Shown here piece after piece: positions 6,417-45,726 of a DNA stretch of 64,000 nucleotides (the first letter of the stretch is position 1; each line of letters begins with the position of its first letter). The translations under genes and the position numbers were made by a program. Origin of the DNA: a virus; IMG/VR virus record IMGVR_UViG_3300031972_002304, positions 2,522-66,521 of that record, one strand, 5' to 3'. A model generated the notes under the pieces. The model made no database searches. It was not told the origin of the DNA and saw nothing but the letters and a program-made list of their open reading frames with translations.

Positions 6417-7637
6417 ATGCCCGAGAACGACGAGATTGCCGGCGAGATCGGCAAGCTGGGCGAGTCCATCGCCAAGATCCGCGAGCAGGTCCAGAACATG
6501 GGCGCCGATCTGACCGCCAAGGTCAGCGCCGGCGGCGACGAGACCGCTGCGGTGAAGGAGAAGGTCGACAAGGCCCTTTCCGAGATGAACGAGATGTCGG
6601 GCCGCCTGTCCGATCTCGAGAAGAAGCGGGCCCGCGAGCGCGAGGGTGCCGATCGCCAGCAGAAGACCCTCGGCGAGCTCGTCATCGAGAGCGAGGCGTT
6701 CAAGAACTCCAACCTCGACGGTGCCTCGCGCGGCTCCTGCCGCATCAAGATCGATCGCGCCAACATCACCTCGGCGCCGTCGACCGTCGGCGACAATACC
6801 AGCGTCGGCACCAGCCTCGTCCCGGGCATGCGCGTTCCGGGCATCATCGCGCCCCCGAATCGGATGATGACCATCCGCGACCTGCTGATGCCGGGGCAGA
6901 CGAGTTCGAGCAACGTCGAATACGTCAAGGAAACCGGCTTCACCAACAACGCGCGGCCGGTGTCCGAAGGCACGACCAAGCCGAAGTCGGACCTGACCTT
7001 CGAGCTGGAGAGCGCGCCGGTCCGCACGATCGCGCACATCTTCAAGGCATCCCGCCAGATCCTGGACGATGCCGTCGGCCTGCGCTCCTACATCGACGGA
7101 CGCGCCCGCTACGGCCTGATGTTCAAGGAAGAAGCGCAGTTGCTCAACGGCGACGGTAACGGCCAGAACATCAACGGCCTGATCCCTCAGGCGACCGACT
7201 ACTCGGCCGAGTTCACCCCGTCGTCGGCGCAGCAGATCGACACGCTCCGCCTGGCGCTGCTGCAGGTCGTCCTCGCCGAGTATCCGTCGAACGGCTTCGT
7301 CCTCAACCCGATCGATTGGGCGCGGATCGAGCTGACGAAGGACGCCGAGGGCCGCTACATCATCGGCAACCCGGTCAACGGCACCATGCCGATGCTGTGG
7401 AATCTGCCGGTCGTGTCGACCCAGGCCATGGGCGACGGCGAGTTCCTGACCGGCGCCTTCAACATGGCGGCTCAGATATTCGACCGGATGGAGATCGAAG
7501 TCCTTCTGTCGTCCGAGAACGTCGACGACTTCGAGAAGAACATGTTCACGATCCGCGCCGAGGAGCGCCTCGCGCTCGCCGTCTACCGGCCCGAGGCCTT
7601 CGTCTACGGCGACTTCGGCCTGTCGTCCGGCGCCTGA
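6417..7637 (+). CDS. HK97-fold major capsid protein
   Basis: Coiled-coil delta domain, EGTTKP, LNGDG, IRAEERLAL..RPEAF. Confidence 0.97.
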   Translation: MPENDEIAGEIGKLGESIAKIREQVQNMGADLTAKVSAGGDETAAVKEKVDKALSEMNEMSGRLSDLEKKRAREREGADRQQKTLGELVIESEAFKNSNLDGASRGSCRIKIDRANITSAPSTVGDNTSVGTSLVPGMRVPGIIAPPNRMMTIRDLLMPGQTSSSNVEYVKETGFTNNARPVSEGTTKPKSDLTFELESAPVRTIAHIFKASRQILDDAVGLRSYIDGRARYGLMFKEEAQLLNGDGNGQNINGLIPQATDYSAEFTPSSAQQIDTLRLALLQVVLAEYPSNGFVLNPIDWARIELTKDAEGRYIIGNPVNGTMPMLWNLPVVSTQAMGDGEFLTGAFNMAAQIFDRMEIEVLLSSENVDDFEKNMFTIRAEERLALAVYRPEAFVYGDFGLSSGA

Positions 7638-13646: not shown

Positions 13647-13921
13647 AAGCCTGGCTGAACCGCACCGAGTTCCTCCCGCATCTCGCGTTCCTGCGGGACG
13701 CCTTCTACGATCTGGCCGCATCAAGGTCGGTCACCCAGGCCGGCCCGCAGCCGATCCCCATCTCCGAAATCGCCGCCTACTGCTCGCTCTTTGGCGTCTC
13801 TGACGTCCAGGAGCGGGCCGAGTTCTTGAGCGCGATGCAGGCGATGGACGCCGCCTACCTCGACCACATCAACCAGCCGGACAAACCGGACCAGCCGAAG
13901 GAGGACGACAAGGGTGGTTGA
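13556..13921 (+). CDS. Tail assembly chaperone -1 frameshift extension (gpGT-like)
   Basis: -1 frame open from slippery site: KLVDALRW...AFYDLAASR..GPQPIPISEI..MDAAYL..KGG*, ending at TMP start. Confidence 0.85.
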   Translation, partial: GKLVDALRWSLRWSEQESWFRSLAERGKPVKAWLNRTEFLPHLAFLRDAFYDLAASRSVTQAGPQPIPISEIAAYCSLFGVSDVQERAEFLSAMQAMDAAYLDHINQPDKPDQPKEDDKGG

Positions 13922-16900
13922 TCGCGTCGTCAAATCGGTCGAGATCCGTGAAGCCGGAACGCAGCGCGTCTACGATCGCTTCACCAAACTGACGACGGCG
14001 GCGCGTGGGGTCAGCGTCGCCGTCAACGAAGCCGGCACTGCGATCGAGACGAATGCGCGCAAGATCGATTCCGCGGCTCGTTCCTACGAGCGCCTGACGG
14101 AGCGCACCACTTCGAATTCTGGTGCTCTGCGGAATTATGCTAGCGACATCAACACTGTGGAGAAGGCGCACGCCGCCGGCATCACGTCGGCTAAGCAGTT
14201 CGCCACCGATCTTCAGCGCGTGCAGCAAGCGCTTCAGTCTGCCGGCGCGCCCCGCGGCCCGTCGACCGATCTCCAGCGGAACCTCGAATACATCAACGAG
14301 ACGCGCTTGGCAGCGAAGTCGGCGCAGGAGTCGGCCGAGGCGATGTCCGCGGCCTTTCGCGCGATCGACACCGGCACGACGCCGCTGCAGAATACCATCA
14401 ACTCGCTGCACGGCATCGGCGAGGGGTTTCTCGATGCGCAGGCGTCGGCAAGCGCCTTCGGCGATTTCTTCAAGCGAGAGATGGAGGAGGCGAAGCGGCA
14501 GGCCGAGGTAGTCTCTGCTGCCATCTCCAAGGAATTCGGCGACGCTTTCAATCGCCGCATGAACATCGGCGGGCCGTCGGCCACGCAGATGGGTGCCAGC
14601 TATTCCGCACTGTCTGGCCTGAATTCGCAACTCGACCTGATCGAGCGGGCCCGCACTGAGCAGTTTGCCCCCGACCTCAATCGCCGGCTCGGCGTCGGCG
14701 TCAATGCCAGAGACCAAGGCGCGACAGTCTCAGCGCTGATGGAGGCAGAGAAGGCGGCCGAAGCATATGAAAGGCGCCTCGCGCAGGTGAGGGCAGAGAT
14801 CGATCCTGTCGCAGCCGCGCAGGATCGCCTTAATGCGGAGATCGCCGAATACACGGCCATGGCTGCTCGCGGCGATCTGACGACGCAGCAACTGGCCCAA
14901 GGGATGGAGGTGGCGCAGGGCAGGTTCGCGCTGGCGGAGCGATCCCTTGGCCAGTTCAAGGATGCGAGCCGGCTCTCGTCTACCGAGTTGCAGAACCTGC
15001 AGTTCCAGTTGAACGACATTGGCGTCTCGCTGGCGTCCGGCCAGTCGCCGTTCGTGGTCCTCCTCCAGCAGGGCGCGCAGATCGGCCAGTTGTTCGGGCC
15101 AGGCGCCACGGTGCAGACGGCGCTTCGCTCTGTGGCGTCTGGCGTGATGCAGTTCCTGACGAGCCCGATCAACCTTGCGGTCCTCGGCTTTGCGGCACTG
15201 GCCGGCGGCGTCGCCTATTTTGTCTCCACCTTCAAGTCCAATATCCCGCCGCTGAAGGACCGGATTGAGGACCATCTGAAGCTGGTGCGCGATCTGGCCG
15301 ATGCCTATGGCGACGCGAGCGCGAACGTCGACAAATACGGCAAGCTTGGCAAGTCTGCTCTCGAGGCGCTGAGCGCCAGGCAGCGCGAAATCACAGCGCT
15401 CCAGCTGCAGTCTGGCGCGAGCAGGATTCTCGACCGACTGGCCCCTGAGATCAGTCTGCCAGACATCACGACAGGCGAGGTCGTCCAGGCCCGGGACATG
15501 AACAAGTACCCCGAGCTTGAGGGTGCTCTGAAGCGACTTTCCGACAGCGCGAAGACCGGCGCACCGAACGTCCGTGAGTTCTTCGACGAGATCGGCAAGA
15601 TCGGCGCCACGACGAGGGACGCCGGGCTCCGCAAGTTGATCGCCGACGTGATCGAGACGAACCGGAATCTCGTCACGGCGCAGGACATCATCGATGGCAC
15701 AGTGGATCGCCTGGGCAAGCTCCGCGAGGCGGCGCGCAAGGCCGGCGATGCTGCTCGCGACGGCCTGAAGGAATTCGTCCCGGATCTGACGACTGATCGC
15801 CAGCGGATCGAGCAGCTTTACCGGCAGCGCCTGAACGCGGCCACGGTGCGCGTCCCGAACGACCCAGAGCGCAATCGGAACGCCCTCGCGGGCATCCAGA
15901 TCGAAGCCGACCGCGACCGCAAGGAGGCGCTAGACGAGATCGCCAGGGCGGAGGCCAACGTCCGCCGTGAGCGCGAGCTTGCCACGCAGGGCATATTTGC
16001 CCGCACGACGGCTGAGCGCTCTGCCATTGCCGAGCAGATGAAAGCCGTCGAACTGAACACCGTCCAAGGCGACAAGCTGGGTGAGGTCGAGCGGGAGGCT
16101 CGCATCGCGGCCGAAGGGCTTCTCGTCTTCGCCCAGGCTCAGCGAGAGGTGCAGGATGCAGCCCGATCTGCGGAGGACGCGCTTTCCACCGCAGGCATGC
16201 GTGGGTACGCCGCCGAGATCGCTGGCATCAACCGGCAGATCGAGCGCCAAATCGAATTGACGCCGGAACTCGCCGACGCATGGAACCGGATCGGCGATGC
16301 CCAGCGCGCAGTTGCGACGATCAACATGCGCGAGCAGCTGTTCACACCGCAGAACGACAATGTCGCCTCGCTGAAGGCTGAAGCAGAGGCGCTCGACCTC
16401 ACGGGCGAAGCGCGCCGCCGTGTCCTTGCGGACGCTCAGGCTGAGCAGACGCTGCGGCAGGCCGGCGTCGATCTGCTGAGCAAGGAGGCGGAGGCCTATC
16501 GCTCCAATGCGCGGGCGATCTCGGAATACGAGGCCGCGCTGTCGGCGGCGAAGGCCGAGCGCGATCTCCTGTTCGAACGCGACCAGATGCTTCGCACGCC
16601 GACCGAGCAGAAGGTCGCCGAGCAGCTTCGCAGCCTGAACCTCAGCGAGCGCGATCCCTACGGCAAGGTCATCGCCAACCAGGTCCGCTACAATGAGCGC
16701 CTGAAGGAGGGGAAAGAGCTCATCGAGGGCATGACGTCAGGCCTGTCGGCGCAGATCCGTGAAGCCAAGAGCCTCGGCGACGTGGGTAGCATCCTCCTCG
16801 ATCGTGTTTCCGGCGCTCTGAACAGCTACATGGACAAGCAACTGGAGAAAGCGCTGCAGGAGGTTGGCAACTCGGTCCTCGGAAATCTATTCCCCGGCGC

Positions 16901-18203
16901 AGGGCCGGCTATCGGCTTGCCGGATGCGCCGGCCATGCAGACGATCGCGACGGCGAACATGACCGCTTCCGTGGTGAATCTGACGTCAGCCAACGGCCTC
17001 CTGGGCGGTTTGGCGGCGAACCAGAATTCCCCGCTCGGCTCTATCGAGCGCGGCGGGCCGCTGGCGCCAGTTCTGGACCCTGCCAGCCAGCGAGTTTCGG
17101 ACGCCTTCGCGGTCACTGCCCCGGTCGCAGGGATGAGCGGCGCGGCGCCATCTGTCTCCGAAATGACGGCCTATATTCGACAGGCTGCGGCAGCTCGCGG
17201 CATTGATCAGGAGATCGCTCTTCGCGTCGCGCGATCCGAAGGCTTGGGCGAGGGAATCTGGCAGTCCAACTATCACCGCGGCAGCTTCCGCGAGCCGTCC
17301 TATGGACCGTTCCAGCTTCTGAAAGGCGGCCCAGGCACAGGCTTCGGTCCGGGCCTCGGCAACGCGTTCATGCAGGACACGGGGCTGGATCCAGCCGACC
17401 GGCGCACATCTTACGCAGGCATCGACTATGCGCTGAACCATGCGGCCAAGAACGGTTGGGGGGCATGGTACGGCGCCGACAAGGCCGGCGTCGGCGAGTG
17501 GGACGGCCTCCGCGGCGCACAGACGGTTCCGCTCGAGCAGGTGCAGGCGCAGATCCAGCAGTCGGCGACCGCTCTGCAGCAGTCAGCGCAGACGCTCGCG
17601 CCGGCTGCGTCGCAGTTCACATCGAGCCTCGGCCAGCAGCTGAACGGCACGATCGTCGGCGGCGCCAGCCAGATCGCCGATCAGTTCGTGCCAGGCCTCG
17701 GCGGTGTCGTGCAGACGTTCCTGAAGGCCTTCCAATCGGCCGCGCCTGGCGGCGGAGGCGGCTTGGGCAGTCTGATCGCGAGCGCCTTCGGCGGTGGAGG
17801 AGGCGGAGCCGATCCTTGGGCTGGGCTACGCTTCGCCAAGGGCGGCGCCTTCACCAACTCGATCGTCGACACCCCGACGCAGTTCCGATTCGCGGATGGC
17901 ATCGGCTTGATGGGCGAGGCCGGCCCCGAGGCGATCATGCCGCTCAGTCGCGGGCGCAATGGCAGGCTCGGCGTCACCATGTCAATGCAGCGGGCTCCCC
18001 AGGCGGCTCAGCCCACGATCGTCGAGAACGTCTTCCACAACGCCCCGCCTGTGAAGGAGCAGCGCGAGGAGACGGATCAGTCGACCGGCAAGCGCCGCAA
18101 CGTGATCGTCTTCGACGAGATGGTCTCGAAAAGCGTCAAGGGCGGCCCGAGGACAAAACGTGCGCTCGGCCAGCTTGGCGCCAAGATGCCACTGACGAGG
18201 TAG
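13914..18203 (+). CDS. Tape measure protein with C-terminal lysozyme/transglycosylase-like domain
   Basis: 1429 aa, Ala-rich helical; QLNDIGVSLASGQSP..QQGAQI; RVARSEG..GPFQL; GEAGPEAIMPL. Confidence 0.93.
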   Translation: MVDRVVKSVEIREAGTQRVYDRFTKLTTAARGVSVAVNEAGTAIETNARKIDSAARSYERLTERTTSNSGALRNYASDINTVEKAHAAGITSAKQFATDLQRVQQALQSAGAPRGPSTDLQRNLEYINETRLAAKSAQESAEAMSAAFRAIDTGTTPLQNTINSLHGIGEGFLDAQASASAFGDFFKREMEEAKRQAEVVSAAISKEFGDAFNRRMNIGGPSATQMGASYSALSGLNSQLDLIERARTEQFAPDLNRRLGVGVNARDQGATVSALMEAEKAAEAYERRLAQVRAEIDPVAAAQDRLNAEIAEYTAMAARGDLTTQQLAQGMEVAQGRFALAERSLGQFKDASRLSSTELQNLQFQLNDIGVSLASGQSPFVVLLQQGAQIGQLFGPGATVQTALRSVASGVMQFLTSPINLAVLGFAALAGGVAYFVSTFKSNIPPLKDRIEDHLKLVRDLADAYGDASANVDKYGKLGKSALEALSARQREITALQLQSGASRILDRLAPEISLPDITTGEVVQARDMNKYPELEGALKRLSDSAKTGAPNVREFFDEIGKIGATTRDAGLRKLIADVIETNRNLVTAQDIIDGTVDRLGKLREAARKAGDAARDGLKEFVPDLTTDRQRIEQLYRQRLNAATVRVPNDPERNRNALAGIQIEADRDRKEALDEIARAEANVRRERELATQGIFARTTAERSAIAEQMKAVELNTVQGDKLGEVEREARIAAEGLLVFAQAQREVQDAARSAEDALSTAGMRGYAAEIAGINRQIERQIELTPELADAWNRIGDAQRAVATINMREQLFTPQNDNVASLKAEAEALDLTGEARRRVLADAQAEQTLRQAGVDLLSKEAEAYRSNARAISEYEAALSAAKAERDLLFERDQMLRTPTEQKVAEQLRSLNLSERDPYGKVIANQVRYNERLKEGKELIEGMTSGLSAQIREAKSLGDVGSILLDRVSGALNSYMDKQLEKALQEVGNSVLGNLFPGAGPAIGLPDAPAMQTIATANMTASVVNLTSANGLLGGLAANQNSPLGSIERGGPLAPVLDPASQRVSDAFAVTAPVAGMSGAAPSVSEMTAYIRQAAAARGIDQEIALRVARSEGLGEGIWQSNYHRGSFREPSYGPFQLLKGGPGTGFGPGLGNAFMQDTGLDPADRRTSYAGIDYALNHAAKNGWGAWYGADKAGVGEWDGLRGAQTVPLEQVQAQIQQSATALQQSAQTLAPAASQFTSSLGQQLNGTIVGGASQIADQFVPGLGGVVQTFLKAFQSAAPGGGGGLGSLIASAFGGGGGGADPWAGLRFAKGGAFTNSIVDTPTQFRFADGIGLMGEAGPEAIMPLSRGRNGRLGVTMSMQRAPQAAQPTIVENVFHNAPPVKEQREETDQSTGKRRNVIVFDEMVSKSVKGGPRTKRALGQLGAKMPLTR

Positions 18204-18206
18204 GCC

Positions 18207-18632
18207 ATGCCGTATCCAGTTTGGCCGGCTGAGCTGCCGCAGTATCCGACGCCGGACGGATATCAGCGCGGCGCGCGAGATGGCCGGTCCTTCGCAAGCA
18301 TGCAGAACGGCCCGCCGAAGATCCGTCGCAAGACTTCCGCGGCCGTGAAGCCGGTGTCGCTGACCTACGAGATGACGACGGACGAACTCGCCAGGTTCGA
18401 GCGCTTTTGGGAAGAGGACACCGATGGTGGGCTGCTCTTCGTGATGCCAGACGCGGTCAATCATGGGCAGCCGCTACTGACCGAAGCCGGGGAGCCGATT
18501 TTGACCGAGGATGGCGATCCCATCCTGATTTCGGCATGGTGGCTGGTCGCGTTCGGCGAGGAGGCCTACCAGGTCTCGCCGATCGGGCCGCTCGACTACA
18601 ACGTCTCGTTCTCGGTGCTCGTATGGCCGTGA
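18207..18632 (+). CDS. Minor tail (distal tail-like) protein
   Basis: WPAELP, GPPKIRR, FERFW motifs; follows TMP. Confidence 0.75.
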   Translation: MPYPVWPAELPQYPTPDGYQRGARDGRSFASMQNGPPKIRRKTSAAVKPVSLTYEMTTDELARFERFWEEDTDGGLLFVMPDAVNHGQPLLTEAGEPILTEDGDPILISAWWLVAFGEEAYQVSPIGPLDYNVSFSVLVWP

Positions 18633-19186
18633 AGACCGGAAGGCGCCTCGTCAGCTTCAACATGCGGACGGCGATCGAGCAGCCGATCACGCCAGAGACG
18701 GCCGTGACGCTGGTCACGATACGGCATCCCGAGCTTGAGGCCCCGCTGCGGCTGTCGACCGATCCGACGGTTCGGACTTCCTCTGACCCTTTGATGTACG
18801 GCACGCGGTCGAAGATGATCTCGCCGCAGATCACCTCTGATGTCTTCAACCTCACCACCGCAGCGCAATTCGATTTCGTGCTGATGTCGGCCATCCTGCC
18901 GGATGATCCGGAGGAGGGCACCACGCCGGTTGACATGACCATTGAGAACGTCGCCGCCGGGATGACGGCGATGGCTCAGAAGCTGAAGACGCCGGCCCAG
19001 GTGGATTTCGCCGTCGTGCTTGCGGCGACACCGGACTATGTGGAGTTCGCATGGACCGGCCTCTACACCGTCGGCGCCGATTGGGACGAGCGGGCCATCA
19101 CGATCCCGGTCTCGCGCGAGGTCATCCAGAGGCTGAGCTATCCGTTCGGCCGCATGACGCGGTCGTTCTTTCCGGGGCTGTTCTGA
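18623..19186 (+). CDS. Minor tail protein (DUF1833-like)
   Basis: LVTIRHP, ILPDD, IENV, C-terminal FPGLF. Confidence 0.75.
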   Translation: MAVKTGRRLVSFNMRTAIEQPITPETAVTLVTIRHPELEAPLRLSTDPTVRTSSDPLMYGTRSKMISPQITSDVFNLTTAAQFDFVLMSAILPDDPEEGTTPVDMTIENVAAGMTAMAQKLKTPAQVDFAVVLAATPDYVEFAWTGLYTVGADWDERAITIPVSREVIQRLSYPFGRMTRSFFPGLF

Positions 19187-19195
19187 GAGGAAGCC

Positions 19196-19459
19196 ATGAG
19201 CATCGTTGTCGAATACCGAGAAATCGGCACGGAGGCTTGGATCAGGCATCGCTGTGCTCCGCTTTCGCGCGCCCCATCGTTCACGGAAACGGCAGGCGGA
19301 GATGGGGCGATTATCGCCAGCGGCGACGTTGGCTTCTCAACCTGGTCGGATGATGAACTGCTGGAGGAATACATCAAGCACGGGCAGTTTTCTGAAGAGT
19401 GTCGAACCACGGATGGCGCGGCCGTGAGAGACGAACTGCAGCGTCGCGGAGTTCTCTGA
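19196..19459 (+). CDS. Hypothetical protein
   Basis: GAGG RBS; TGATG coupling to next ORF. Confidence 0.55.
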   Translation: MSIVVEYREIGTEAWIRHRCAPLSRAPSFTETAGGDGAIIASGDVGFSTWSDDELLEEYIKHGQFSEECRTTDGAAVRDELQRRGVL

Positions 19460-19695
19460 TGCACATCGTTATCGAAAACAAAGTCCCCGGCGTCGACGTG
19501 AAGGTGCGCGAGGTCGACGGACAGACCGTCGTGACCGTGCAGCGTGGCGACGGCCTCAACGAGATCGTCACGGATAGGCCTCCTCTCGACATCTGGCGCG
19601 ACGCGCACCGCATTCACCGCGCGACCATTGGAGCCGCCGGCCCTGAGGCGATCATGCCGCTCCGCCGGGGGGCTAAGGCGCCATTGGTCCGCTGA
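19459..19695 (+). CDS. Hypothetical protein carrying a copy of the TMP GPEAIMPL motif
   Basis: MHIVIENK...GAAGPEAIMPLRRG. Confidence 0.55.
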   Translation: MHIVIENKVPGVDVKVREVDGQTVVTVQRGDGLNEIVTDRPPLDIWRDAHRIHRATIGAAGPEAIMPLRRGAKAPLVR

Positions 19696-19774
19696 AGCGC
19701 CAAGCCGTTCGCCTTGCGCTCCTGTGGATAGCCATCGGATGCGCGGTCAGCATAGTCTTCGAAATCGCGAGAGA

Positions 19775-20200
19775 ATGCCTGCCGTGACGCATTGGTCCTC
19801 CCCCTTCATCGGCATGCCCTTCGAAGAGCGCGGGCGCGAAGCCCGCGGCGTGGATTGCTATGGGCTCGTGCGCCTCGTCCTTATGGAGGTGCAGAGGATC
19901 GCTCTGCCGAGCTTCACCGAATCCTATGTCAGCTGCGCCGAGCGCGAGATGATCGCCGCCGCCCTCGATGCCGGCGAGCGAGACCTGCCGCTGCGCCCGA
20001 TCCGCCGCGGCGACGAGGCGCCGTTCGACATCGTGGAGTTCGTCCGCGGCGGCATCTCCGATCACGTCGGCATCGTCGTGGAGCGCGGACGGATGCTGCA
20101 CATCGAAAGCGGCGGAGAAAGCCGCATCGAGCGCTACGACGTCGGCAAGTGGCTGCCGCGCCTCAAGGGCTTCTACAGACATCGGGATCTGATCCGGTGA
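19775..20200 (+). CDS. NlpC/P60 (C40) tail protein
   Basis: GVDCYGLV, HVGI, MLH motifs. Confidence 0.9.
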   Translation: MPAVTHWSSPFIGMPFEERGREARGVDCYGLVRLVLMEVQRIALPSFTESYVSCAEREMIAAALDAGERDLPLRPIRRGDEAPFDIVEFVRGGISDHVGIVVERGRMLHIESGGESRIERYDVGKWLPRLKGFYRHRDLIR

Positions 20201-23200
20201 ACCAACTCGTCCCGATCCAGCCTGCTCCTGACGGGGTCGCTTCGGCGGCCCTTTTTCATGAGCAGAAGAGCCTGTCCGTCCTCGCGCTGCCGACGCTGGA
20301 TCTCGGCAATCGCAGGGAGGTAACGCACCGCTACGGCATGACGGTTGCTGAGCTGGTGGCTGCAGAATTCCCTGGCCTCCCTCCTGAGCGCATGGCGATG
20401 GTGCGCGTCACCATCGGCAATTGGGAGATATCAGCGGCGGTCTGGCACCGCGTCCGGCCTCAGCCTGGCTGGACCGTCGTCGTCCGGATCGTCCCACATG
20501 GCGGCAATCTGCGGAGCATCCTATCGGTCGTGATTTCGGTTGCGGCCATCGCCATCGGTCAGTTCTATGTCGGGCCGTTGTTGGGGGCTGCAGCAGGCGC
20601 ATTCGCGACCGCGGCCATCGGCTTCGCAGGCAACTTGCTTCTGAACGCCCTGATCCCGGTCAAGGCACCGGGCGGAGACGAACGATCCCAGACATATGAT
20701 GTCCAGGGTTGGGAGAATGTCGTCAACCGAAACGGGCCGGTCGTCGACCTCATGGGCAGGCATCGTTGGGCGCCGCCGTCGCTGGCATCATCTTTCACCG
20801 AAACTATCGGCGACGAACGCTGGGTCACTGGCCTATTCGGCGGGTACGGGCCGCTTGAGATCGACGTCGACTCCATCAAGATCGGCGACACGCCGATCAC
20901 CGACCTCGAGGATGACGAATACGAGATCGAGATCCGCGAAGGCTATCCTGACGACGAGCCTTTGTCGCTCTATCCGGCACAGATTAGCGAGGTGCAGGTC
21001 GGCATCTCACTGCAGGAAACCGATGACGATGGAAAGCTATATCCAGTCACAAGGTCAAGCCCCCCTGACGCGGAAGAACTCTCCGTCGACATCGCATTTC
21101 CTGGCGGTCTAATTGACGTAAACGATAAGGGTGAAGAATATCAGCAGAATGTTCGTATAACTATTGAATACAGACTCGCTGGAACTGATACGTGGATATT
21201 TCTACCGGGTAATGAAGGCGATACGATAAGGATAACTGCAGAGACAAGAAAGCCTATATACAGAAGTTTCAGGTGGACGCCCGCAGTCAGAGGTCAATAT
21301 GAGCTTCGACTGACGCGCACCAGCGGTGAAGACAGTACGGCATCACAAGAAACGGTGTGGGCTTGCGTCCGCGCGCATCGGCCGGAGTATCCTCTGAATT
21401 TCCCGAAGCCGTTGGCGATGGTCTGCGCCAAGGTGAAGGGCACGCGCCTCACGAACGGCCAGCTGAAGGAACTGAACTTCGTCGCCCAGCGGGTTTGCAA
21501 GGATTGGGACGCGGAGACAGAGACGTGGATAGAGAGGCCTACCAGCAGCCCGGCCTCGCTGCGGCGCTGGAGCCTGCAGGGGCCGGCGAACGCCAAGCCG
21601 CTAGCCGATGCCGACATCGACCTCGCCTACTTCGCTGACTGGCACGAATGGTGCGATGGGCTTGGCCTCGAGTATAACAGGGTCCACGACTACGACGCGT
21701 CGATCGAGGAGGTGGCACAGGACATCTGCCGGGTCGGCCGGGCGACGCCGCAGAACTATGGCACGCAGGAAACCGTCTGCATCGACCGTCAGCAGACGGA
21801 GATCGTCTCGCACATCGGCCCGCGCAACGCCTGGGACATCAAAGGCTCGGTCCAGTCCATTGATCCGCCGGACGCCTGGCGGATCCCGTTTCGCGACGCT
21901 TCCAATCTTTGGGAGCAGCATGAGCGGATTGTCCCACGCCCCGGGTTGGTCGGCGCGCCGCAGCGCATCGAGGAGCTGAACGCCGACGGCATCACCGACC
22001 CGGCTCAGATCTGGTACTACGGCCGTCGCCGGTTCCTCGAGCTCGAATACCGCGCCGAGACTTGGACGGCATCCATGGACATCGAGAACCTCGTCTTGGT
22101 GCGGGGAAACCTCGTGCGGCTGTCGATGTTCGATGGGCAGACGAGCGCGAGGGTGAAGAGGGCCAGCGGCAGGTTCGTGGAGCTCGACGAACTTGTGGAG
22201 ATGGAGGAGGGCACCGACTACGGCGTTCGCTTTCGGCTGCGCGATGGCTCCTCCGTGCTCTGGATCGTTGCGGCCACCCCCGGCGAGACCAAAGGGCTGC
22301 GTCTAGTCTCGATCTCCTCCCGCTATGCGGCCGATAACGACGAAGATTACCGCCCGACGGACAACGACTGGCTCCCGCAGGGCCGCGAGATGATCGACGG
22401 CGAGCGCTATGACGGCGACCTCGCCTTCTTCGGCCCGCTGAACGGCGAGACCGTCGCGGCGATCGTGAAAGACATCGAGGGGGGCGAGGACTTCAGCGCC
22501 GTGATCACGCTCATGCCCGCCGCGCCAGAAATCGACGCCTTCCTCGAGACCGACACGCCGCCTGCCTGGGATGGCCGCGTCGGCGCCGAGGTGGAGATCG
22601 ACGTCGTTGCGCCGCGGACGCCGTTGATCACCAGCGTCAGGACTGGCGAGCAGGCCCGCCGCGATACCGACGATCCGGACGAATATCCGCCGATCAGGGT
22701 CATCGTCTCGGCGGCCGGCGCGACCCGCGTCACGGTCTACCAGATTCAACACCGCTTGCAAGGATATGGGACGTGGAGCGACCCACCGGCGACAGGATAT
22801 GCCTATAGCGGGGTCGTCGAGATCCCTGGTTACGATAAGGGCGACATCGTCGAGATGCAGCCGCGCGCAGTCGGGCAGACGGGGCTGACCAGCGCATGGG
22901 GGCCGACCGTGACGCGAACCGTCGGCGCCGAGGATCCGGAGGCAATGGCTGCGGTTTCAGGTGTATCGGTCACCGCCGATGACGATGCTGCGCTGATCAC
23001 CTGGACGACACCGAACGACAGCCGGCTCGAAGGAGTGCAGATCTTCCGCGTGCCGTCGGGGACGGCGTTCGCCGATGCAGAGCCGAGCGATATCATCGCG
23101 ACGGTTTACTCCGCTCCCAGCGCTTCCCCGCCAGCGGTTGTCGACGAAGCCGGCTACGGCGACTGGACGTGGTTCATCGTAGCGTTCGGCGATGGTGTCT

Positions 23201-23601
23201 TCTCCGATCCATCATCAGCTTCGGCCCCGCTCATGGGCCCGACGCTGATGACCAATGGCGGATTCGACACCGACACCGACTACGTGAAGGGCGCCGGCTA
23301 CTCGATCGGCTCCGGCGTCGCTACGAAGGCTGCTGGCAGTGTCTCTGTGATGTCGCAGAACATCGGTTCGCTCACCGCAGGGACGGAATACCGGCTGCAG
23401 GTCGAGGTGAAGACCTTCACCGCTGGGCAGATCCGCATGCGTCTGAGTGGCGGTTCGGTAGTGAACGGCCCGCTCCTTACCGGCGTTGGCCTGTTCTATT
23501 TGGACGTTACTGCGGTTTCCGGAAACAACACCGTCGAGTTCCTTTCCACATCGACCGCGGCGATGACGTTCGACGATGCGAGCGTCAGAAGGATTTCCTG
23601 A
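20197..23601 (+). CDS. Tail hub / host-specificity protein J-like
   Basis: GTGA coupling; IKIGDTPI, GQYELR, FN3-like and C-terminal carbohydrate-binding-like (NGGFDTD) segments. Confidence 0.88.
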   Translation: MNQLVPIQPAPDGVASAALFHEQKSLSVLALPTLDLGNRREVTHRYGMTVAELVAAEFPGLPPERMAMVRVTIGNWEISAAVWHRVRPQPGWTVVVRIVPHGGNLRSILSVVISVAAIAIGQFYVGPLLGAAAGAFATAAIGFAGNLLLNALIPVKAPGGDERSQTYDVQGWENVVNRNGPVVDLMGRHRWAPPSLASSFTETIGDERWVTGLFGGYGPLEIDVDSIKIGDTPITDLEDDEYEIEIREGYPDDEPLSLYPAQISEVQVGISLQETDDDGKLYPVTRSSPPDAEELSVDIAFPGGLIDVNDKGEEYQQNVRITIEYRLAGTDTWIFLPGNEGDTIRITAETRKPIYRSFRWTPAVRGQYELRLTRTSGEDSTASQETVWACVRAHRPEYPLNFPKPLAMVCAKVKGTRLTNGQLKELNFVAQRVCKDWDAETETWIERPTSSPASLRRWSLQGPANAKPLADADIDLAYFADWHEWCDGLGLEYNRVHDYDASIEEVAQDICRVGRATPQNYGTQETVCIDRQQTEIVSHIGPRNAWDIKGSVQSIDPPDAWRIPFRDASNLWEQHERIVPRPGLVGAPQRIEELNADGITDPAQIWYYGRRRFLELEYRAETWTASMDIENLVLVRGNLVRLSMFDGQTSARVKRASGRFVELDELVEMEEGTDYGVRFRLRDGSSVLWIVAATPGETKGLRLVSISSRYAADNDEDYRPTDNDWLPQGREMIDGERYDGDLAFFGPLNGETVAAIVKDIEGGEDFSAVITLMPAAPEIDAFLETDTPPAWDGRVGAEVEIDVVAPRTPLITSVRTGEQARRDTDDPDEYPPIRVIVSAAGATRVTVYQIQHRLQGYGTWSDPPATGYAYSGVVEIPGYDKGDIVEMQPRAVGQTGLTSAWGPTVTRTVGAEDPEAMAAVSGVSVTADDDAALITWTTPNDSRLEGVQIFRVPSGTAFADAEPSDIIATVYSAPSASPPAVVDEAGYGDWTWFIVAFGDGVFSDPSSASAPLMGPTLMTNGGFDTDTDYVKGAGYSIGSGVATKAAGSVSVMSQNIGSLTAGTEYRLQVEVKTFTAGQIRMRLSGGSVVNGPLLTGVGLFYLDVTAVSGNNTVEFLSTSTAAMTFDDASVRRIS

Positions 23602-23732
23602 CGGCGAGCGGCAGGGAGTCTCGTCGACGTTCCAGGAAATCAAAATGCAGTCCGCAGCCTGCGTCTTCGGCACAATCTGATCCGGCGCTCGCCGAGATCT
23701 TCATCTCAAATCGTTCAGATCAGGATTCCATC

Positions 23733-25790
23733 ATGGCGCTTGCAAGCGACCTCCCGTTGCTGTCGTCCGTCAGCCACCTCGTCGGGCTGGAGGATGTCTC
23801 TGGGCAATTCAGCGTTGGGCGTCTCTCGTTCTCGCTCCTCGTCGCCCAGCTTCTTTCCGAGGGTGGGATCGCGGACGAGATCAACGATCTCCGCGATTTG
23901 ATCGAGGCGTTGGATAGCGGCGCCTACAAGGGAACGTGGAATGCAGCTACTAACACCCCAGAGCTGGCATCCGGCGTAGGAACCGACAAAGATCGCTATC
24001 TGGTTTCGACCCCAGGCTCGACGGAGCTCGACGGCATCTCGTCGTGGTTTGCCGGCGATCAGCTGGTGTTCTCCGATGCAGCCGGCGGCGTGTGGCAGCG
24101 GATCGCTGGCACGACGGATTCCGCAACCTTGGCGGCGCTGGCGGCGAAGATCGCGAACGTCTTCCCTACGGAGGCTATCTGTGCCCCGAGCGGCACTCAG
24201 GCCCGCGTCGAATTTCGGCTCTCAGCTGGCGCGTTGGCGTCGGCCATGGCCATCCTGCTGGGCACTGGTGCGCTGTCTCTGCGAAACGGCACACGCGACT
24301 CCCTTCTCATCGACACAGCCGGCAACGTCATTATGCCGTTCACGCCGGACGCTCCGAAGCCAATCGGCACCACTCCGACGAAAGACATGGTGCGCAAGGG
24401 CTTCACGCCGTGGGGGGAGAAAACGGAGGAGCGCGAAGACCTCGTCGTTCCCCAGCTGTATCACGTCAGCGCGGGCGACGCGTATCACCAGCTTGTGGTG
24501 CAGACATCAGACCGCACCCTTCAGTGCGAGCACCTGGCGGCAGGCTTCGCCGTCGAGATCCATACGGACGGAGTGGGCGTCCGGCTGGACGCCGGCATTG
24601 ACCGGGAATGGTTCGGCGTCTCGGGATCGCCGCGCTTCATCGACGTCAGCGCCGACGCCATCGTGCAGATCAGGGCGCTGCGGACGGGATCCAACAAACT
24701 GCGGATCACGGTCCTGGCCGGCTCGCCGACCATCGCTGCGTCGGCGTCGCAGCTGGAAGCTATCGCCGACAAGACCGTCGCGATGATGTTCCAGTCGCTC
24801 GGCTACCGGCTGTTCAATGGCTTTGGCCTGGAGGGCATCCAGCGTGCGCTTCGGGATGCCGGGTACACGGCGACGATCCGCTTCATCAACCTGGCGACGC
24901 CGAACACCTCGCTTCTGGAGGGCAACGATACCGGGACCGGCCATTGGGTGAAGGACGACCATACGGCTGGCTCGTTGCTCCTCCCAGCTCTGGTCGCTCT
25001 GGCTTCGCTGACCGCCGCGCAGCCGGGCGGGGCAGGCCAGCCGGCGCCGTCGGCCGTCGTTGCCAACGGTGGACAGAACGAAGTCACCAAGATCAACGAC
25101 AATGCCGCCTACACGACAATGGCCGCCGTCTCGACGGGCTATCAGGACTTCGGCGACCTGATTGACGCGGCCTATCCTGGATGCAAGTTGATCGTCACAC
25201 CACTGCCATCTCGCGACGGGCAACTTTCCGGGGTGACATGGCAGCAGCTCGTGCGCCGGGCGCAACTGGATGCCATCGCGACGTCGAGCAAGCTCGCCCT
25301 CGGCGAGGAGACCTACGACCTCATCCGACGGCCCGAAGACGTCCACATGCCCTGCGAGAGCCAGCGCATTCAGGGCTATCGCCTCGGTAAGATCCTGCAC
25401 AACATCATCGGTGGCGGCAGCAATTACCTTGGGCCGGTGATCACCAAGATCACCCGCGTCTCCGACACGACGCTTGATTTCACGGTGGACTGGAGCGGCG
25501 GGGCTGCCATCGAAGCGCAGTATTTCAATGAAGGCTGGCCTGACTGGTGGGTTACCGCGGTCGGCGCGGCGACCAAGAATCAGACGTACCAGACGCCGAT
25601 CAAATGCGACTTGCAGGCCACGGTCGGCTCGACGCGCCGCTATCGCCTGACCTTCGCCACCACTCTCCCTGCAGATCTCATCGCCTCCTACCCAGGCGGA
25701 TACTGCGACAACAGCGAGACCGGGCGAGGCATGAACGACAACACCAACGTTCTTCCGCTGCGCAGCGTCGCGATGGAAGACACCCCGTAA
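23733..25790 (+). CDS. Tail fibre/spike with SGNH esterase-like domain
   Basis: AGGA RBS; YKGTWNA anchor motif; FQS, GGQNE, EDVH motifs. Confidence 0.7.
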   Translation: MALASDLPLLSSVSHLVGLEDVSGQFSVGRLSFSLLVAQLLSEGGIADEINDLRDLIEALDSGAYKGTWNAATNTPELASGVGTDKDRYLVSTPGSTELDGISSWFAGDQLVFSDAAGGVWQRIAGTTDSATLAALAAKIANVFPTEAICAPSGTQARVEFRLSAGALASAMAILLGTGALSLRNGTRDSLLIDTAGNVIMPFTPDAPKPIGTTPTKDMVRKGFTPWGEKTEEREDLVVPQLYHVSAGDAYHQLVVQTSDRTLQCEHLAAGFAVEIHTDGVGVRLDAGIDREWFGVSGSPRFIDVSADAIVQIRALRTGSNKLRITVLAGSPTIAASASQLEAIADKTVAMMFQSLGYRLFNGFGLEGIQRALRDAGYTATIRFINLATPNTSLLEGNDTGTGHWVKDDHTAGSLLLPALVALASLTAAQPGGAGQPAPSAVVANGGQNEVTKINDNAAYTTMAAVSTGYQDFGDLIDAAYPGCKLIVTPLPSRDGQLSGVTWQQLVRRAQLDAIATSSKLALGEETYDLIRRPEDVHMPCESQRIQGYRLGKILHNIIGGGSNYLGPVITKITRVSDTTLDFTVDWSGGAAIEAQYFNEGWPDWWVTAVGAATKNQTYQTPIKCDLQATVGSTRRYRLTFATTLPADLIASYPGGYCDNSETGRGMNDNTNVLPLRSVAMEDTP

Positions 25791-27763: not shown

Positions 27764-27799
27764 AAAGCCCGCCGCTCCTGACAGGGGGCGGCGGGCTTT
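27764..27799. terminator. Bidirectional terminator hairpin
   Basis: AAAGCCCGCCGCTCCT-GAC-AGGGGGCGGCGGGCTTT. Confidence 0.75.
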
Positions 27800-27875
27800 C
27801 TGCGTCTGAGATACTGTCTTTTCGCTCTCGTCGCCGTATGCTGCTGCGCAGTAAGATCACGAGCGAGGCAGAACG

Positions 27876-28838
27876 ATGAACTCCACCGACATATTGAAGG
27901 CGACGTTTCGCAACAAAAACAGACACTACCCAGGGCATGAGGACAAGCGGCAAGTCTCGTTCCCTGATCGGGTTGAAATCGGCCGCCAGCAAAACATGAT
28001 CCGCCCCGCGCTGCGGCCGAGTTTTCAAATCAAGCGCTCTTCCTCGGTTTTCACCATCGGATCGTGCTTCGCGCGCAACGTCGAGAGGTTCCTTTTGGCC
28101 GAAGGTGTTGACGTGCCGGCGGCAAGCTTTCGCGTTCCTGAAGGCGAAGTCCCAGGGGGCGAGAACCGGGTCTTGAACCAGTACAACCCCGGATCGATGG
28201 CGCAGGCCATCCAATTCGCGAGCGAGCCAGTCCATTACGATGGCATTGTCGAGACCGCCTCCGGAGCGGTCGACCTGCTTCTCGCGACTGGCACGAGACC
28301 GGTAAGCATAGACCGCGCTCGCGAGAGGCGCGAGCAGGTTCACGACCTATACCGTCGGAGCATTGATCAAGCCGATGTTGTTCTCATCACACTCGGGTTG
28401 GTGGAGGCATGGCGCGACAAGCAGACCGGCCTATGGCTCAATGATGTTCTTGTCGGGCATGTCCGATCCGAACCAGACAGGTATGAATTCCATCAAATGA
28501 ACGTCGCGCAGTGCGAGGAAATGATTACGCAGATGATCGCCTCGCTCGGCGAGAAGAATGTCGTCGTGACCGTTTCGCCTGTGCCGCTTCAGATGACATT
28601 TACAGACGATGATTGTGTCGTGGCGAACACGACATCAAAGGCCACTTTGCGAGTTGCGGCGGATCTGGTCTGCAAGAAATTCCCGAATGTTGACTATTAC
28701 CCGTCGTTTGAAATGGTTACGCTACTTGGTGCGACGGCGTATGGATATGACAACGTCCATGTGAGGGACTACATCGTCCATCATGTTGTGAACTACATGC
28801 TCACATCGTACCTTGAGAAACTTAGCGGCAGACATTAG
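27876..28838 (+). CDS. GSCFA-family (SGNH-like) protein, moron
   Basis: TIGSCFARN, ITLGLVEAW, TVSPVPL, SKATLR, YYPSFE, HV motifs; lower GC than flanks. Confidence 0.9.
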   Translation: MNSTDILKATFRNKNRHYPGHEDKRQVSFPDRVEIGRQQNMIRPALRPSFQIKRSSSVFTIGSCFARNVERFLLAEGVDVPAASFRVPEGEVPGGENRVLNQYNPGSMAQAIQFASEPVHYDGIVETASGAVDLLLATGTRPVSIDRARERREQVHDLYRRSIDQADVVLITLGLVEAWRDKQTGLWLNDVLVGHVRSEPDRYEFHQMNVAQCEEMITQMIASLGEKNVVVTVSPVPLQMTFTDDDCVVANTTSKATLRVAADLVCKKFPNVDYYPSFEMVTLLGATAYGYDNVHVRDYIVHHVVNYMLTSYLEKLSGRH

Positions 28839-28874
28839 CCCGCCGCTCCCGGTGAGGAGCGGCGGGCCTTCTGC
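28837..28874. terminator. Hairpin, near copy of 27764 hairpin
   Basis: AGCCCGCCGCTCC-CGGTGA-GGAGCGGCGGGCCTTCTGC between convergent genes. Confidence 0.7.
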
Positions 28875-30427: not shown

Positions 30428-30601
30428 GTTGCGATCCTTCATGGTCTGTCGCAACGCCGTGCCAGACTCATCAGCATCTTGGCAGAAATTCCTAATCTGA
30501 GGGTCACTGGTTCGAATCCAGTCGGGATCACCAATCAAATCAGGAACTTGATGCTGCATCTGTCCTTGGCGTTGCGACCATGTTGCGACGCCGTTGCGAC
30601 G
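30428..30601. promoter_or_regulatory. Integrase arm-type sites and IHF site of attP
   Basis: GTTGCGAC at 30571, 30582, 30593 (11-bp period), inverted copy at 30448, variant at 30428; AATCAGGAACTTG at 30538 fits WATCARNNNNTTR. Confidence 0.75.
30488..30533 (+). other. attP core: 3' half of tRNA-Arg(CCU)
   Basis: TTCCTAA anticodon loop, T-arm CACTGG-TTCGAAT-CCAGT, CCA end; no 5' half; adjacent to integrase 3' end. Confidence 0.9.
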
Positions 30602-30602
30602 C

Positions 30603-31790
30603 CTACGTTTTCGGCTTGTTCCTGGCGGCGACTCGCGCGGCCGCCGCGGCTCTGGTTTTGTCGAGCGTCCCGCGGCTGTAGATCGCCGTTGTCGCGATCT
30701 GCGAATGGTTCGCGTGGTGTCGCATCGTCTCGAGGTCGACGCCAGCCGTTGTGCCCTCGGTGACGCCTCCGGCGCGGCTGTCGCGGTTCCACACGCCATC
30801 GGGCACACCAGCCTTGCGCGCGATCGCCCGCCACATCTGGAAGAAGTTTCGATAGCGATAGGGCAGGCCGGTCGTCTCGTTCTTGACGATGGGCCCCAAG
30901 CGGTTCTCCGCAGGGATCAACGCCAGGCACTCGGCGACGAGCGGATAGGCCGCCGTGTCATGCACGGCCTGCTGACCGGTCTTCGTGGTCTTCTTCCGCA
31001 GCACGCCGTCGCGATCGATGTCAGACCACTGCACGCCGCCGCTCCACCGCTGGCCGCGATCGACGATTCCGCTGGCGCTCTCGCGGTTCGGCGTCCATTC
31101 CCCGATGACGTCGATCTGGCGCAGGGTGAGTTCGAACTGAAGGGCCTGGGCGATGGCGATGGAAGGCCGGCCCATCTCGATCGCCTTCAGGATTATCGCG
31201 CTGCTCTGTTCGAAGGTGACGAATTCTGACCGGGCAGCCGGACTGGCGAAGCGCATGGCCGCCAAGATCGCCGCAAGCCTGGCGCACTCGGGGATGTCCA
31301 TCGTGACGCCGAACTTCACGACGATGCGCAGGATCTGCATGGCCTTGAAAGCCCGGCGGACGCGCTCGGGGCCACCTTCGTCCCGAGGCTCGCGCAGCTT
31401 CGTGTACCAGCGCCGGAAGTCGGCGCCGTTCAGCCGGGCGAGGATGCGGTCGCCGACGGCTGTCTCCAGAAGGTCGAGGGATTCGCCGTACATGCGCCGG
31501 CTGTTGTCCTTCAGCGCGTGGAACGGGCTTTCCGGGGTCTTGCGGTAGAGCGTGATCAGGCCGCGCAGGGTGCCGTCGAAGCGCGCGCCGGCATCACCGT
31601 TGCCGGACAGCCATTCGAGCAGCTCGGCCGTGTAGCGCTGGCAGAGGTGGGCGATCGCCGCCTCGTCGGTTTCGTGGATGCGGATCGTGGGCGTCGGGTA
31701 GCCGTCGGCTTTCTTGGAGATGGCCTTCGCCACCCAATAGAGCGCGGCGCCGCCGGCGCGCTTTCGCCGCTGGAGGCCGGGTGTTCTCAC
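30603..31790 (-). CDS. int: Tyrosine integrase
   Basis: LRQIDV, KKTTKTG, RDSRAGG, HANHS, terminal Y motifs; next to attP. Confidence 0.92.
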   Translation of the reverse strand: MRTPGLQRRKRAGGAALYWVAKAISKKADGYPTPTIRIHETDEAAIAHLCQRYTAELLEWLSGNGDAGARFDGTLRGLITLYRKTPESPFHALKDNSRRMYGESLDLLETAVGDRILARLNGADFRRWYTKLREPRDEGGPERVRRAFKAMQILRIVVKFGVTMDIPECARLAAILAAMRFASPAARSEFVTFEQSSAIILKAIEMGRPSIAIAQALQFELTLRQIDVIGEWTPNRESASGIVDRGQRWSGGVQWSDIDRDGVLRKKTTKTGQQAVHDTAAYPLVAECLALIPAENRLGPIVKNETTGLPYRYRNFFQMWRAIARKAGVPDGVWNRDSRAGGVTEGTTAGVDLETMRHHANHSQIATTAIYSRGTLDKTRAAAAARVAARNKPKT

Positions 31791-39311: not shown

Positions 39312-39608
39312 TCAGTTCGCGGCCAGGCGGTTCAGAGCGCTGACGATCAGATCGGCGCCATCTTGGTCCGTCGCCGCGGCAAGAGGTTCAGCGAGGCCGG
39401 TAATGATCTCGAAAGTCGTCACGGCCTCGGAGACGATGAGGAAATCGGTTTCGTCCTCATGAGGCTCACCGCAGCCCGGGCACGGCTCGCCGTCGGTCCC
39501 AGCATGAAGGGTCTCCAAAACGCGATAGCGATTGGCCGGCCCGCGCTCGGCGGCCTGACGCTCCGCCTCTTCCATCGTCATGACCTGGATTTCGGGTCCG
39601 TCGCTCAT
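39312..39608 (-). CDS. Hypothetical protein, first gene of the leftward operon
   Basis: AGGA RBS; CPGCG motif. Confidence 0.55.
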   Translation of the reverse strand: MSDGPEIQVMTMEEAERQAAERGPANRYRVLETLHAGTDGEPCPGCGEPHEDETDFLIVSEAVTTFEIITGLAEPLAAATDQDGADLIVSALNRLAAN

Positions 39609-39641
39609 TGGCGCTCGTCCTGTCTGCTGGAAACGAGACGG

Positions 39642-39696
39642 ACGGTAATCGGATAAAAGCGACACGTCAACATCTTGTGTCGTTTTTTTACGATTT
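39642..39696 (-). promoter_or_regulatory. pL-like promoter with two operators
   Basis: TTGACG-N17-TACCGT on minus strand; TCG-N8-CGA operators at 39646-39665 and 39677-39696. Confidence 0.7.
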
Positions 39697-39811
39697 GAAT
39701 TATTGGAAGCGTCGCTTACCAATGCTTTTCAGATTGACCGACGGCGCATGTGGGCCGATAACATCCGGCGCCACGCAATCCCGCGTGCCGTATCAACTAT
39801 CGGACATCGTT

Positions 39812-44277: not shown

Positions 44278-44353
44278 GGGCGCTTAGCTCAGCGGATAGA
44301 GCACGGAGCTTCTATCTCCGGTGTCGCAGGTTCGAGTCCTGCAGCGCTCGCCA
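44278..44353 (+). tRNA. tRNA-Arg(UCU)
   Basis: Full cloverleaf: GGGCGCT/AGCGCTC acceptor, GCTC/GAGC D-arm, CGGAG-CTTCTAT-CTCCG anticodon arm, GCAGG-TTCGAGT-CCTGC T-arm, encoded CCA. Confidence 0.95.
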
Positions 44354-45724: not shown

Positions 45725-45726
45725 CG

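Follow-up and report, generated by a model that had tools for sequence, protein, structure and literature searches.

A synonymous rare-codon island coinciding with the FNIII-A domain in the TipJ gene of a lambda-like temperate siphophage

The analysed stretch of viral DNA, referred to below as the window, comprises 64,000 nucleotides (positions 2,522 to 66,521 of IMG/VR virus record IMGVR_UViG_3300031972_002304) and contains a gene for a tail-tip hub protein of the TipJ/gpJ type. An island of low G+C content and rare codons within this gene is confirmed as real, statistically extreme and confined to one domain of the encoded protein, the immunoglobulin-like (Ig-like) insertion domain FNIII-A. 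The compositional shift is almost purely synonymous. The island most likely represents an ordinary mosaic cassette; the odd remainder is an AT shift in the same domain of a sister prophage, seen across saturated synonymous divergence, and because of this shift a functional reading stays alive. An earlier note on this DNA had interpreted the rare codons as a translational gate operated by a phage-encoded tRNA-Arg(UCU), an explanation that the results presented here make very doubtful. The gene, the domain and the island are placed as follows (GC3, G+C content at third codon positions):

20197–23601, + strand: gene for the TipJ/gpJ-like tail-tip hub and central fibre, encoding 1134 amino acids (aa), with a GTG start; its product is designated P0001
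20989–21363, + strand: segment encoding the FNIII-A Ig-like insertion domain (Pfam PF24801 envelope, P0001 residues 265–389)
21016–21351, + strand: low-GC3, rare-codon island (TipJ codons 274–385; GC3 0.40, core 0.27)

Composition of the island and the domain it encodes

The G+C content of the window is 64.5%. It amounts to 47.7% at 21030–21350 and falls to 42.2% at 21121–21300, where 76 of 180 positions are G or C. When segments of 180 nucleotides (nt) are taken in 10-nt steps, the 15 with the lowest G+C content in the 64 kb all start within 21011–21151, and the 180 nt of the island are the AT-richest of the whole 64 kb, beyond any intergenic region. The 90 in-frame codons of 21030–21300 include 4 AGA, 3 AGG, 5 ATA and 3 CTA. 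These counts, as well as the 76 of 180, exactly reproduce those of the earlier note, whose remark that such codons are scarce in the flanking structural genes is also borne out; the major capsid open reading frame (ORF; 6417–7637), for example, has 0 AGA, 0 AGG, 1 ATA and 0 CTA.

Taken over 30 codons at a time, GC3 drops from 0.67–0.87 upstream to 0.27 at 21097–21216 and returns to 0.87–0.93 downstream. Among 3334 in-frame segments of 30 codons, drawn from ORFs chosen by a crude GC3-frame filter (mean GC3 0.814, standard deviation (sd) 0.114), the six with the lowest GC3 are all in the island, as are the four with the highest rare-codon counts (8–9 of 30); relative to the other segments, z is about −5. 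Rare codons are most crowded at 21187–21291 (9 of 30). A maximum-likelihood fit with two boundaries placed the island at codons 274–385, with a GC3 of 0.40 within and 0.82 outside (twice the log-likelihood difference (2ΔlnL) 68.6; support intervals 269–278 for the start and 384–401 for the end). The inner value is the genome-wide minimum, a departure in composition of the kind looked for in horizontally acquired DNA. The sliding counts of GC3 and AGA proposed earlier as a check gave a divided result: the GC3 minimum does lie in the patch, but AGA codons are found mostly elsewhere.

An assembly chimera or artefact was ruled out by the occurrence of the sequence in multiple runs, by an identical independent contig and by several protein-bearing contigs. 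All sampled words of 20700–21700 are present in three runs of one study, a contig from a fourth run spans 21192–21477 with 0 differences, and the TipJ protein is recorded from 6 and 5 contigs. The stretch is present in seawater-metagenome runs of one study, and identical or near-identical fragments occur in the estuary runs of a second study. Four runs compared at 80% likeness yielded short fragments only; the longer pieces were identical or near-identical and the others were matches of 17–43 nt to unrelated contigs. Three of the runs compared in this way had no cover over 21024–21391 and were treated as uninformative. The runs listed as containing the stretch include no RNA runs.

The product of the gene is a TipJ/gpJ tail-tip hub protein. 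On this protein the FNIII-A_GpJ profile (PF24801) scored 54.3 bits, well over its curated cut-off of 27 (E 1.9e-14; residues 262–386 if read from 20206). An AlphaFold2 model, built with 60 homologues and having a mean predicted local distance difference test score of 85.7, contains an all-beta sandwich at about residues 281–375, with lower-confidence linkers at 271–280 and 371–390. The top Foldseek matches were lambda gpJ chains (8k35_A, E 6e-40; 8xcg_F, target TM-score 0.72). The island thus corresponds to one protein domain together with its linkers, the agreement being within a few residues. At the N-terminus of the protein, residues 1–165 (20197–20700) comprise a small beta-grasp/ubiquitin-like fold and two long hydrophobic helices (103–125 and 131–152), followed by a disordered linker. 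This part is found in 12 of 12 aligned homologues and has the appearance of a gpI-like plug or membrane segment that has been fused to J; in some sources, homologues bear the label ‘ThiS’.

The codon style of the patch differs from that of its surroundings almost entirely at synonymous sites. The amino-acid composition is ordinary: the share of F, Y, M, I, N and K (FYMINK) is 0.20 in the patch and 0.30 in the core, at ranks 39 and 6 of 60, and the corresponding family values are 0.21 ± 0.04 and 0.24 ± 0.05. Isoleucine is encoded by 5 ATA, 2 ATT and 1 ATC (n = 8), and leucine by 3 CTA, 2 CTC, 1 CTT and 1 CTG. Arginine is AGA or AGG (AGR) in 7 of 10 cases and glutamate is GAA in 9 of 11; together with ATA in 5 of 8 isoleucines, this usage differs from the AT-ending codon use of the genome itself, as could be expected of a foreign dialect. 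Compared with genome AT-ending usage, the rarest AT-shifted codons are over-used (ATA/ATT, p 0.026; CTA/CTT, p 0.017; AGR/(CGT+CGA), p 0.04), in tests that were post hoc and had small counts.

A separate observation concerns the 9-mer ACGATAAGG, which has exactly three copies in the 64 kb (21122, 21223 and 22832, + strand), all inside the TipJ gene. Two of the copies are within the island, in differing reading frames, and two copies encode DKG peptides (joint chance about 0.06, a rough figure). With up to one mismatch, ACGATAAGG has 15 matches, against 6.9 ± 2.5 in shuffled sequences. It was not accepted as a motif and is probably due to chance and to DKG-coding peptides.

Comparison with the Jiella prophage and the wider TipJ family

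The only close relative among 5.8 billion proteins is the TipJ of a Jiella avicenniae prophage (locus L002), with 75% aa identity overall; the next relatives have 53–56% identity over residues 150–550. The DNA-level match between the window phage and the Jiella prophage is limited to 17611–22938 of the window, the tail-tip module, and it is this confinement that makes mosaicism visible. Beyond the end of DNA similarity at about 22938, the C-terminal 230 or so residues of TipJ fall to 30–60% aa identity with normal GC3, a divergence that is usual for a receptor-binding end.

Within the N-terminal 640 residues of TipJ, the patch is the divergent block. The aa identity between the two phages is 73% in the patch and 91–92% in the flanks, the nt identity is 0.56–0.64 and 0.80–0.89, respectively, and the divergence jumps at the island boundaries. 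The proportion of nonsynonymous differences (pN) is 0.21 in the patch vs 0.044–0.050 in the flanks, and that of synonymous differences (pS) is 0.95 vs 0.53–0.58. Identical residues are encoded by identical codons at a frequency of 0.24–0.35 in the patch and 0.6–0.7 in the flanks. An alignment of J homologues had been suggested as a way to find a conserved protein with differing codons; the codons do differ, but the patch protein is clearly less conserved than its flanks.

The Jiella gene has a dip in GC3 of its own, located at codons 289–385 in window-phage numbering and weaker than that of the window phage (0.57–0.60 vs 0.82; 2ΔlnL 25). The right boundaries of the two dips are equal and the left boundaries overlap. 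The individual codons are not conserved: Jiella has the same codon at 1 of 4 AGA, 0 of 5 ATA and 0 of 3 CTA positions (1 of 12 overall), and retains AGR at 2 of the 7 AGR positions of the window phage. The Jiella patch contains mostly mild codons (ATT, CTT), with only 1 AGA and 1 AGG. AT-richness is thus common to the two phages, and tRNA-specific codons are not. In the flanks, whether a third position is GC or AT in one phage shows no correlation with its state in the other (phi 0.018, n = 502, upper 95% bound 0.106). The sole lineage-specific feature seen in the pair is a loop insertion of 8–9 residues.

More distant TipJ genes lack the dip. A set of 81 IMG/VR TipJ genes with 33–41% identity, from which the Jiella locus was left out to be analysed apart, deviates in GC3, on average, by no more than −0.04 to +0.04 over the patch positions. 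The most extreme 30-codon dips of these genes, wherever located, have a mean of −0.21 (sd 0.05, extreme −0.37), compared to −0.49 in the window phage. All 5 of the 5 distinct TipJ loci from the bacterial family of Jiella have a patch GC3 at or above flank level. Taken together, the dip at the patch is absent in 86 distant TipJ genes (81 from IMG/VR and 5 from the Jiella family), and a family-wide folding pause is thereby excluded. The FNIII-A domain evolves faster than its neighbours family-wide; homologues P0003 and P0004, for example, share 63% identity in the patch and 78–86% in the flanks.

Mosaic cassette, maintained island and other explanations

The reading preferred here, tentatively and at somewhat less than an even chance, is a domain-sized mosaic cassette with its own recombination history, the rare codons being a by-product. 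About 110 codons of FNIII-A would have had an evolutionary history apart from that of the rest of TipJ. The segment would most likely have been acquired by homologous recombination from an unsampled phage that belongs to the same small clade and is lower in GC, either after the split from the lineage of the Jiella prophage or through repeated exchange of the cassette within the clade. The AGA, AGG, ATA and CTA codons would then be a passive trace of a foreign, AT-shifted codon style; they would probably slow ribosomes locally, with no sign of their use as a switch. That recombination was the cause, when it took place and that a donor of lower GC exists are what we infer from the observations above. 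The cassette is favoured because the island boundaries match those of FNIII-A, a natural unit of exchange, because the patch is divergent from Jiella in aa, nt, pN and pS, and because the dip is missing from the 86 other TipJ genes. The visible mosaicism of the two phages and the foreign-looking codon style count in its favour too.

A recent domain swap had been named in the earlier note as an alternative to the gate, and a match to a low-GC donor phage as the result that would overturn the gate. The coincidence with FNIII-A and the raised divergence support the swap, but the donor was not found, and neither the swap nor the overturning of the gate can draw on it.

Several observations weigh against the cassette. 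The window phage and Jiella are still mutual nearest neighbours in the patch, and the distances to homologues P0003–P0007 scale as in the flanks; in pairwise identity matrices the ordering is the same for patch and flanks, i.e. no phylogenetic incongruence was found. Of 98 homologues, none surpasses the patch identity of the Jiella protein (72.7%). A word search with the patch only, in 5.8 billion proteins, retrieved just the query, P0002 (73%) and P0099 (34%); 56% was the best identity reached when 1.84 billion cluster representatives were scanned exhaustively with HMMER, and a scan of one metagenome gave one locus with 49% over 59 residues. Isolated phages had no DNA match, and tblastn reached at most 40% in 22 records. 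The near matches are all of the high-GC type in amino-acid composition, and the AT-most proteins among 150 listed representatives (FYMINK 0.23–0.27) have at most 38% identity in the patch. The amino acids of the patch itself are not AT-shifted (the FYMINK rank of 39 of 60 given above), and 0 of 7 leucines are encoded by TTA or TTG and 0 of 3 lysines by AAA; the lack of these codons is untypical for a low-GC donor. Finally, the dip of the sister in the same segment calls for either another event or a cause common to both phages. The DNA of the next-closest proteins was also sought; P0003 led to relatives of 36–38% only and P0102 to nothing.

The bearing of the sister dip was assessed with a crude retention bound, derived from a stationary two-state model with equal rates and site homogeneity, aa-identical codons only and two sequences of the clade. 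Under this model, a lineage keeps at most about 0.32 of an ancestral compositional deviation. The deviation of 0.43 in the window phage would need an ancestral deviation of at least 1.3, above the possible 0.83, and a passive remnant of an import that preceded the split is rejected for the window phage on this bound. The Jiella dip is a marginal case under this bound: the deviation of 0.22 would need at least 0.68, and the ancestral GC3 would have to be 0.15 or lower. Under these assumptions the shared dip is not a passive relic, and either a recent arrival with a separate cause in Jiella or maintained AT-richness is called for. If the cassette reading holds, the window-phage allele must be the later arrival.

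Maintenance, the second of these options, is the less probable but still appreciable explanation. It supposes a slow-translation island in which selection keeps FNIII-A in AT-ending, poorly decoded codons, no particular tRNA being required; the slowing could give the inserted Ig-like domain, and the HDII-insertion domain that it interrupts, time to fold, or it could limit how much is made of a protein of which each virion needs three copies. A dip common to two lineages whose synonymous sites are otherwise randomised (the phi of 0.018 reported above) is hard to obtain passively, and its right boundary is equal in both phages, the left boundaries overlapping. The shift is nearly all synonymous, leaving the amino-acid composition unchanged, and it follows a protein domain and not a nucleic-acid feature. 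The rarest AT-shifted codons (ATA, CTA and AGR) are over-used, with the post hoc nature and small counts of those tests applying here too, and conserved rare-codon clusters have already been described (PMC5438181). Against maintenance, the dip is missing from the 86 other TipJ genes with the same domain, and the codon positions are unconserved even in the sister (AGA 1/4, ATA 0/5, CTA 0/3), whose version consists mostly of mild codons with 1 AGA and 1 AGG. Furthermore, there is no known reason why this clade alone should need such an island, the loop insertion of 8–9 residues being its sole lineage-specific feature.

The island could also act, or have arisen, at the level of the nucleic acid: as an AT-rich DNA or RNA element (a promoter within the gene, a site of RNase action or pausing, or one at which a nucleoid-associated silencer binds or nucleates), or as a local GC-to-AT mutational hot spot filtered to synonymous sites. 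Such an origin would account for the AT-richest 180 nt of the 64 kb, exceeding any intergenic region, and for a synonymous shift with a conserved protein; the synonymous differences in the patch are also skewed, with 30 from GC in Jiella to AT in the window phage vs 16 in the reverse direction. It is nonetheless improbable. A site that ends in AT in the window phage is no more likely than other sites to do so in the sister (odds ratio 0.95), and a DNA-level element would have no reason to follow the boundaries of a protein domain. The GC-to-AT spectrum, with 17 transitions and 13 transversions in the patch vs 34 and 15 in the flanks, has no signature of single-strand deamination. A search for sigma-70-type promoter-like sites, using the E. 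coli consensus only, found 0 on both strands in 19000–24000, so the embedded promoter or silencer once proposed for this segment gains nothing from the search or from the AT-ending sites, which are unconserved between the two phages. No Rfam families except tRNA were found in 19000–47000, and the RNA folding of the patch is unremarkable (z −1.0). An overprinted ORF was rejected, as no convincing alternative-frame ORF is present. The patch was also rejected as the target of a diversity-generating retroelement; it has no repeat copy in the window, and no RVT_1 match was obtained in the 66.5-kb record (about 79% complete), while control genomes were positive.

The tRNA on which the proposed gate depends is located in the early region:

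44278–44353, + strand: tRNA-Arg gene with anticodon TCT, 76 nt, with encoded CCA (ARAGORN; Rfam RF00005, 62.4 bits), between small rightward ORFs of the early operon

According to the gate reading, the arginine codons of the patch would tie TipJ synthesis to this tRNA-Arg(UCU) and so time or limit production of the tail tip. The tRNA itself is as it had been described: ARAGORN, Rfam and the neighbouring genes agree on a tRNA that reads AGA and lies in the lytic early operon, which diverges from the repressor gene. The density of AGA is 35.7 per 1000 in the patch vs 1.0–2.6 per 1000 elsewhere, and lambda Int synthesis is reportedly modulated by a rare Arg tRNA. The dependence of hub synthesis on this tRNA is, however, highly unlikely. 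The tRNA reads AGA, possibly also AGG by wobble, and hence serves no more than 7 of the 15 rare codons counted in 21030–21300; the remaining 8, namely the 5 ATA and 3 CTA, are beyond its reach and have no phage tRNA. The 70 ORFs counted, which come from a crude GC3-frame filter and are not a curated annotation, contain 45 AGA in total. Non-late genes account for 27 of these and late ORFs other than J for 13, J having 1 outside the patch and only 4 within it; 41 of the 45 are thus outside the patch, at least one AGA is present in 27 of the 70 ORFs, and the codon is not concentrated in the supposed target. The sister holds just 2 AGR at the 7 AGR positions and keeps 1 of the 4 AGA. Jiella avicenniae, plausibly a relative of the host, has in its genome a tRNA-Arg(TCT), host- or prophage-borne and 81% identical to the phage tRNA, and AGA is therefore readable without a phage copy. 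An early tRNA would, moreover, already be present when late genes are translated, adding no timing beyond that of the late promoter. On the simplest reading, the phage tRNA-Arg(UCU) is not a partner of the patch and supplements the decoding of AGA and AGG throughout a high-GC genome in which AGA is rare.

A second ARAGORN call, a 95-nt tRNA-Ala(CGC) at 45994–46088 (− strand), lies inside a DNA methyltransferase ORF (45694–46338) and was unconfirmed by Rfam at the gathering threshold; it is probably a false positive. The Jiella locus contains a tRNA-Pro and tRNA-Arg(TCT) pair at 22535–22606, about 9 kb downstream of the prophage TipJ and in the lowest-GC stretch of the 23-kb locus. This pair may mark the prophage end or an attachment site.

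A combination of maintenance and gate can also be envisaged, in which a maintained translational brake on FNIII-A would have lasted through the turnover of all other synonymous sites and been sharpened in the window phage into a cluster with arginine codons read via the early tRNA-Arg(UCU), pacing assembly of the tail tip. It is considered very unlikely.

Genome layout and comparison with known systems

The window covers 64,000 of the 66,521 bases of the virus record, the completeness of which is estimated at 79%. The layout is that of a lambda-like temperate siphophage, and the order tape measure, minor tail protein, NlpC/P60 (K) and J is lambda-like (L-K-I-J context). Besides the features listed above, the following were recorded:

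2257–3984, + strand: 575-aa ORF, putative large terminase (the label is assumed)
13914–18203, + strand: tape-measure gene (TMP_2, Pfam)
18407–19186, + strand: minor tail protein gene
19544–20200, + strand: NlpC/P60 (gpK-like) tail-tip gene, directly upstream of TipJ (Pfam PF00877, E 5.2e-9)
30603–31790, − strand: integrase gene
39608–40777: replication-initiator (O-like) ORF
41148–41894, − strand: CI/LexA-like repressor gene (phrog_4 transcriptional repressor, E 2.9e-20), with a UmuD-like C-terminal part
+ strand, diverging from the CI/LexA-like repressor gene: rightward operon of small ORFs, the tRNA, the DNA methyltransferase and a helicase
elsewhere in the window phage: Bet/RecT-like and exonuclease genes

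Beside the 3′ end of the integrase gene, at 30490–30535, is a fragment resembling a tRNA 3′ end (T-arm, acceptor strand and CCA). It is likely to be the attP core and suggests integration into a host tRNA gene. The acceptor of the fragment is unlike that of the Jiella tRNA-Arg(TCT), and 21 nt match the T-arm of the Jiella tRNA-Pro at 90%. Four direct repeats with the common sequence CACCGAAGGGTGCTC, spaced by 24–35 nt, are located at 40318–40435 within the O-like ORF; they look like putative origin iterons, and the lambda ori sits within gene O. Two GC-rich and near-identical hairpins (27764–27803 and 28837–28874; 88% complementary as an inverted pair) flank a 320-aa ORF (27876–28838), the 3′ part of which is among the lower-GC stretches of the window (0.47–0.50). 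This ORF may be a terminator-bounded ‘moron’ cassette between the tail and lysis genes and the integrase region.

Compared with lambda gpJ, the island of the window TipJ encodes the same accessory Ig-like domain and the whole protein superposes on gpJ, while the sequence identity is about 15% and a gpI-like part is fused to the N-terminus of J in the window phage. To our knowledge, a compositional island is not a known feature of lambda J. In lambda gpJ, FNIII-A is an additional Ig-like domain that interrupts the HDII-insertion domain, and it touches gpI (PMC10721106); the gpJ domains are also listed in PMC11101478.

As with phages whose tRNAs compensate for codon usage, the window phage has a tRNA for AGA, a codon that is rare (2.5 per 1000) in its 64.5% GC genome. 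It differs in that AGA is spread over 27 of 70 ORFs, more of it in non-late genes, and in that most rare codons of the patch are not arginine codons. Phage tRNAs have recently been surveyed computationally (PMC13015707 and PMC12482277).

The likeness to conserved rare-codon clusters that tune co-translational folding lies in the crowding of the genome's rarest codons (9 of 30) into one autonomously folding domain. What is missing is the position-specific conservation that defines such clusters: the dip is absent from 86 relatives, and just 1 of 12 AGA, ATA and CTA codons is in place in the sister. Should maintenance prove true, the island would offer a clean example from nature of selection that acts on the synonymous sites of a single domain in a virion protein.

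Intragenic mosaicism of phage tail proteins differs from the present case in that no donor and no phylogenetic incongruence were found here, the AT shift is synonymous only and the sister has a weaker dip. The resemblance is a domain-sized block in a host-interaction protein whose composition and divergence are unlike those of its flanks, and shuffling at the level of fragments and domains is described for such phage proteins in PMC10684548. As nothing more than a mosaic cassette, the island would exemplify ordinary domain-level shuffling in a phage host-interaction protein and serve as a warning that a rare-codon cluster and a phage tRNA may coincide by chance.

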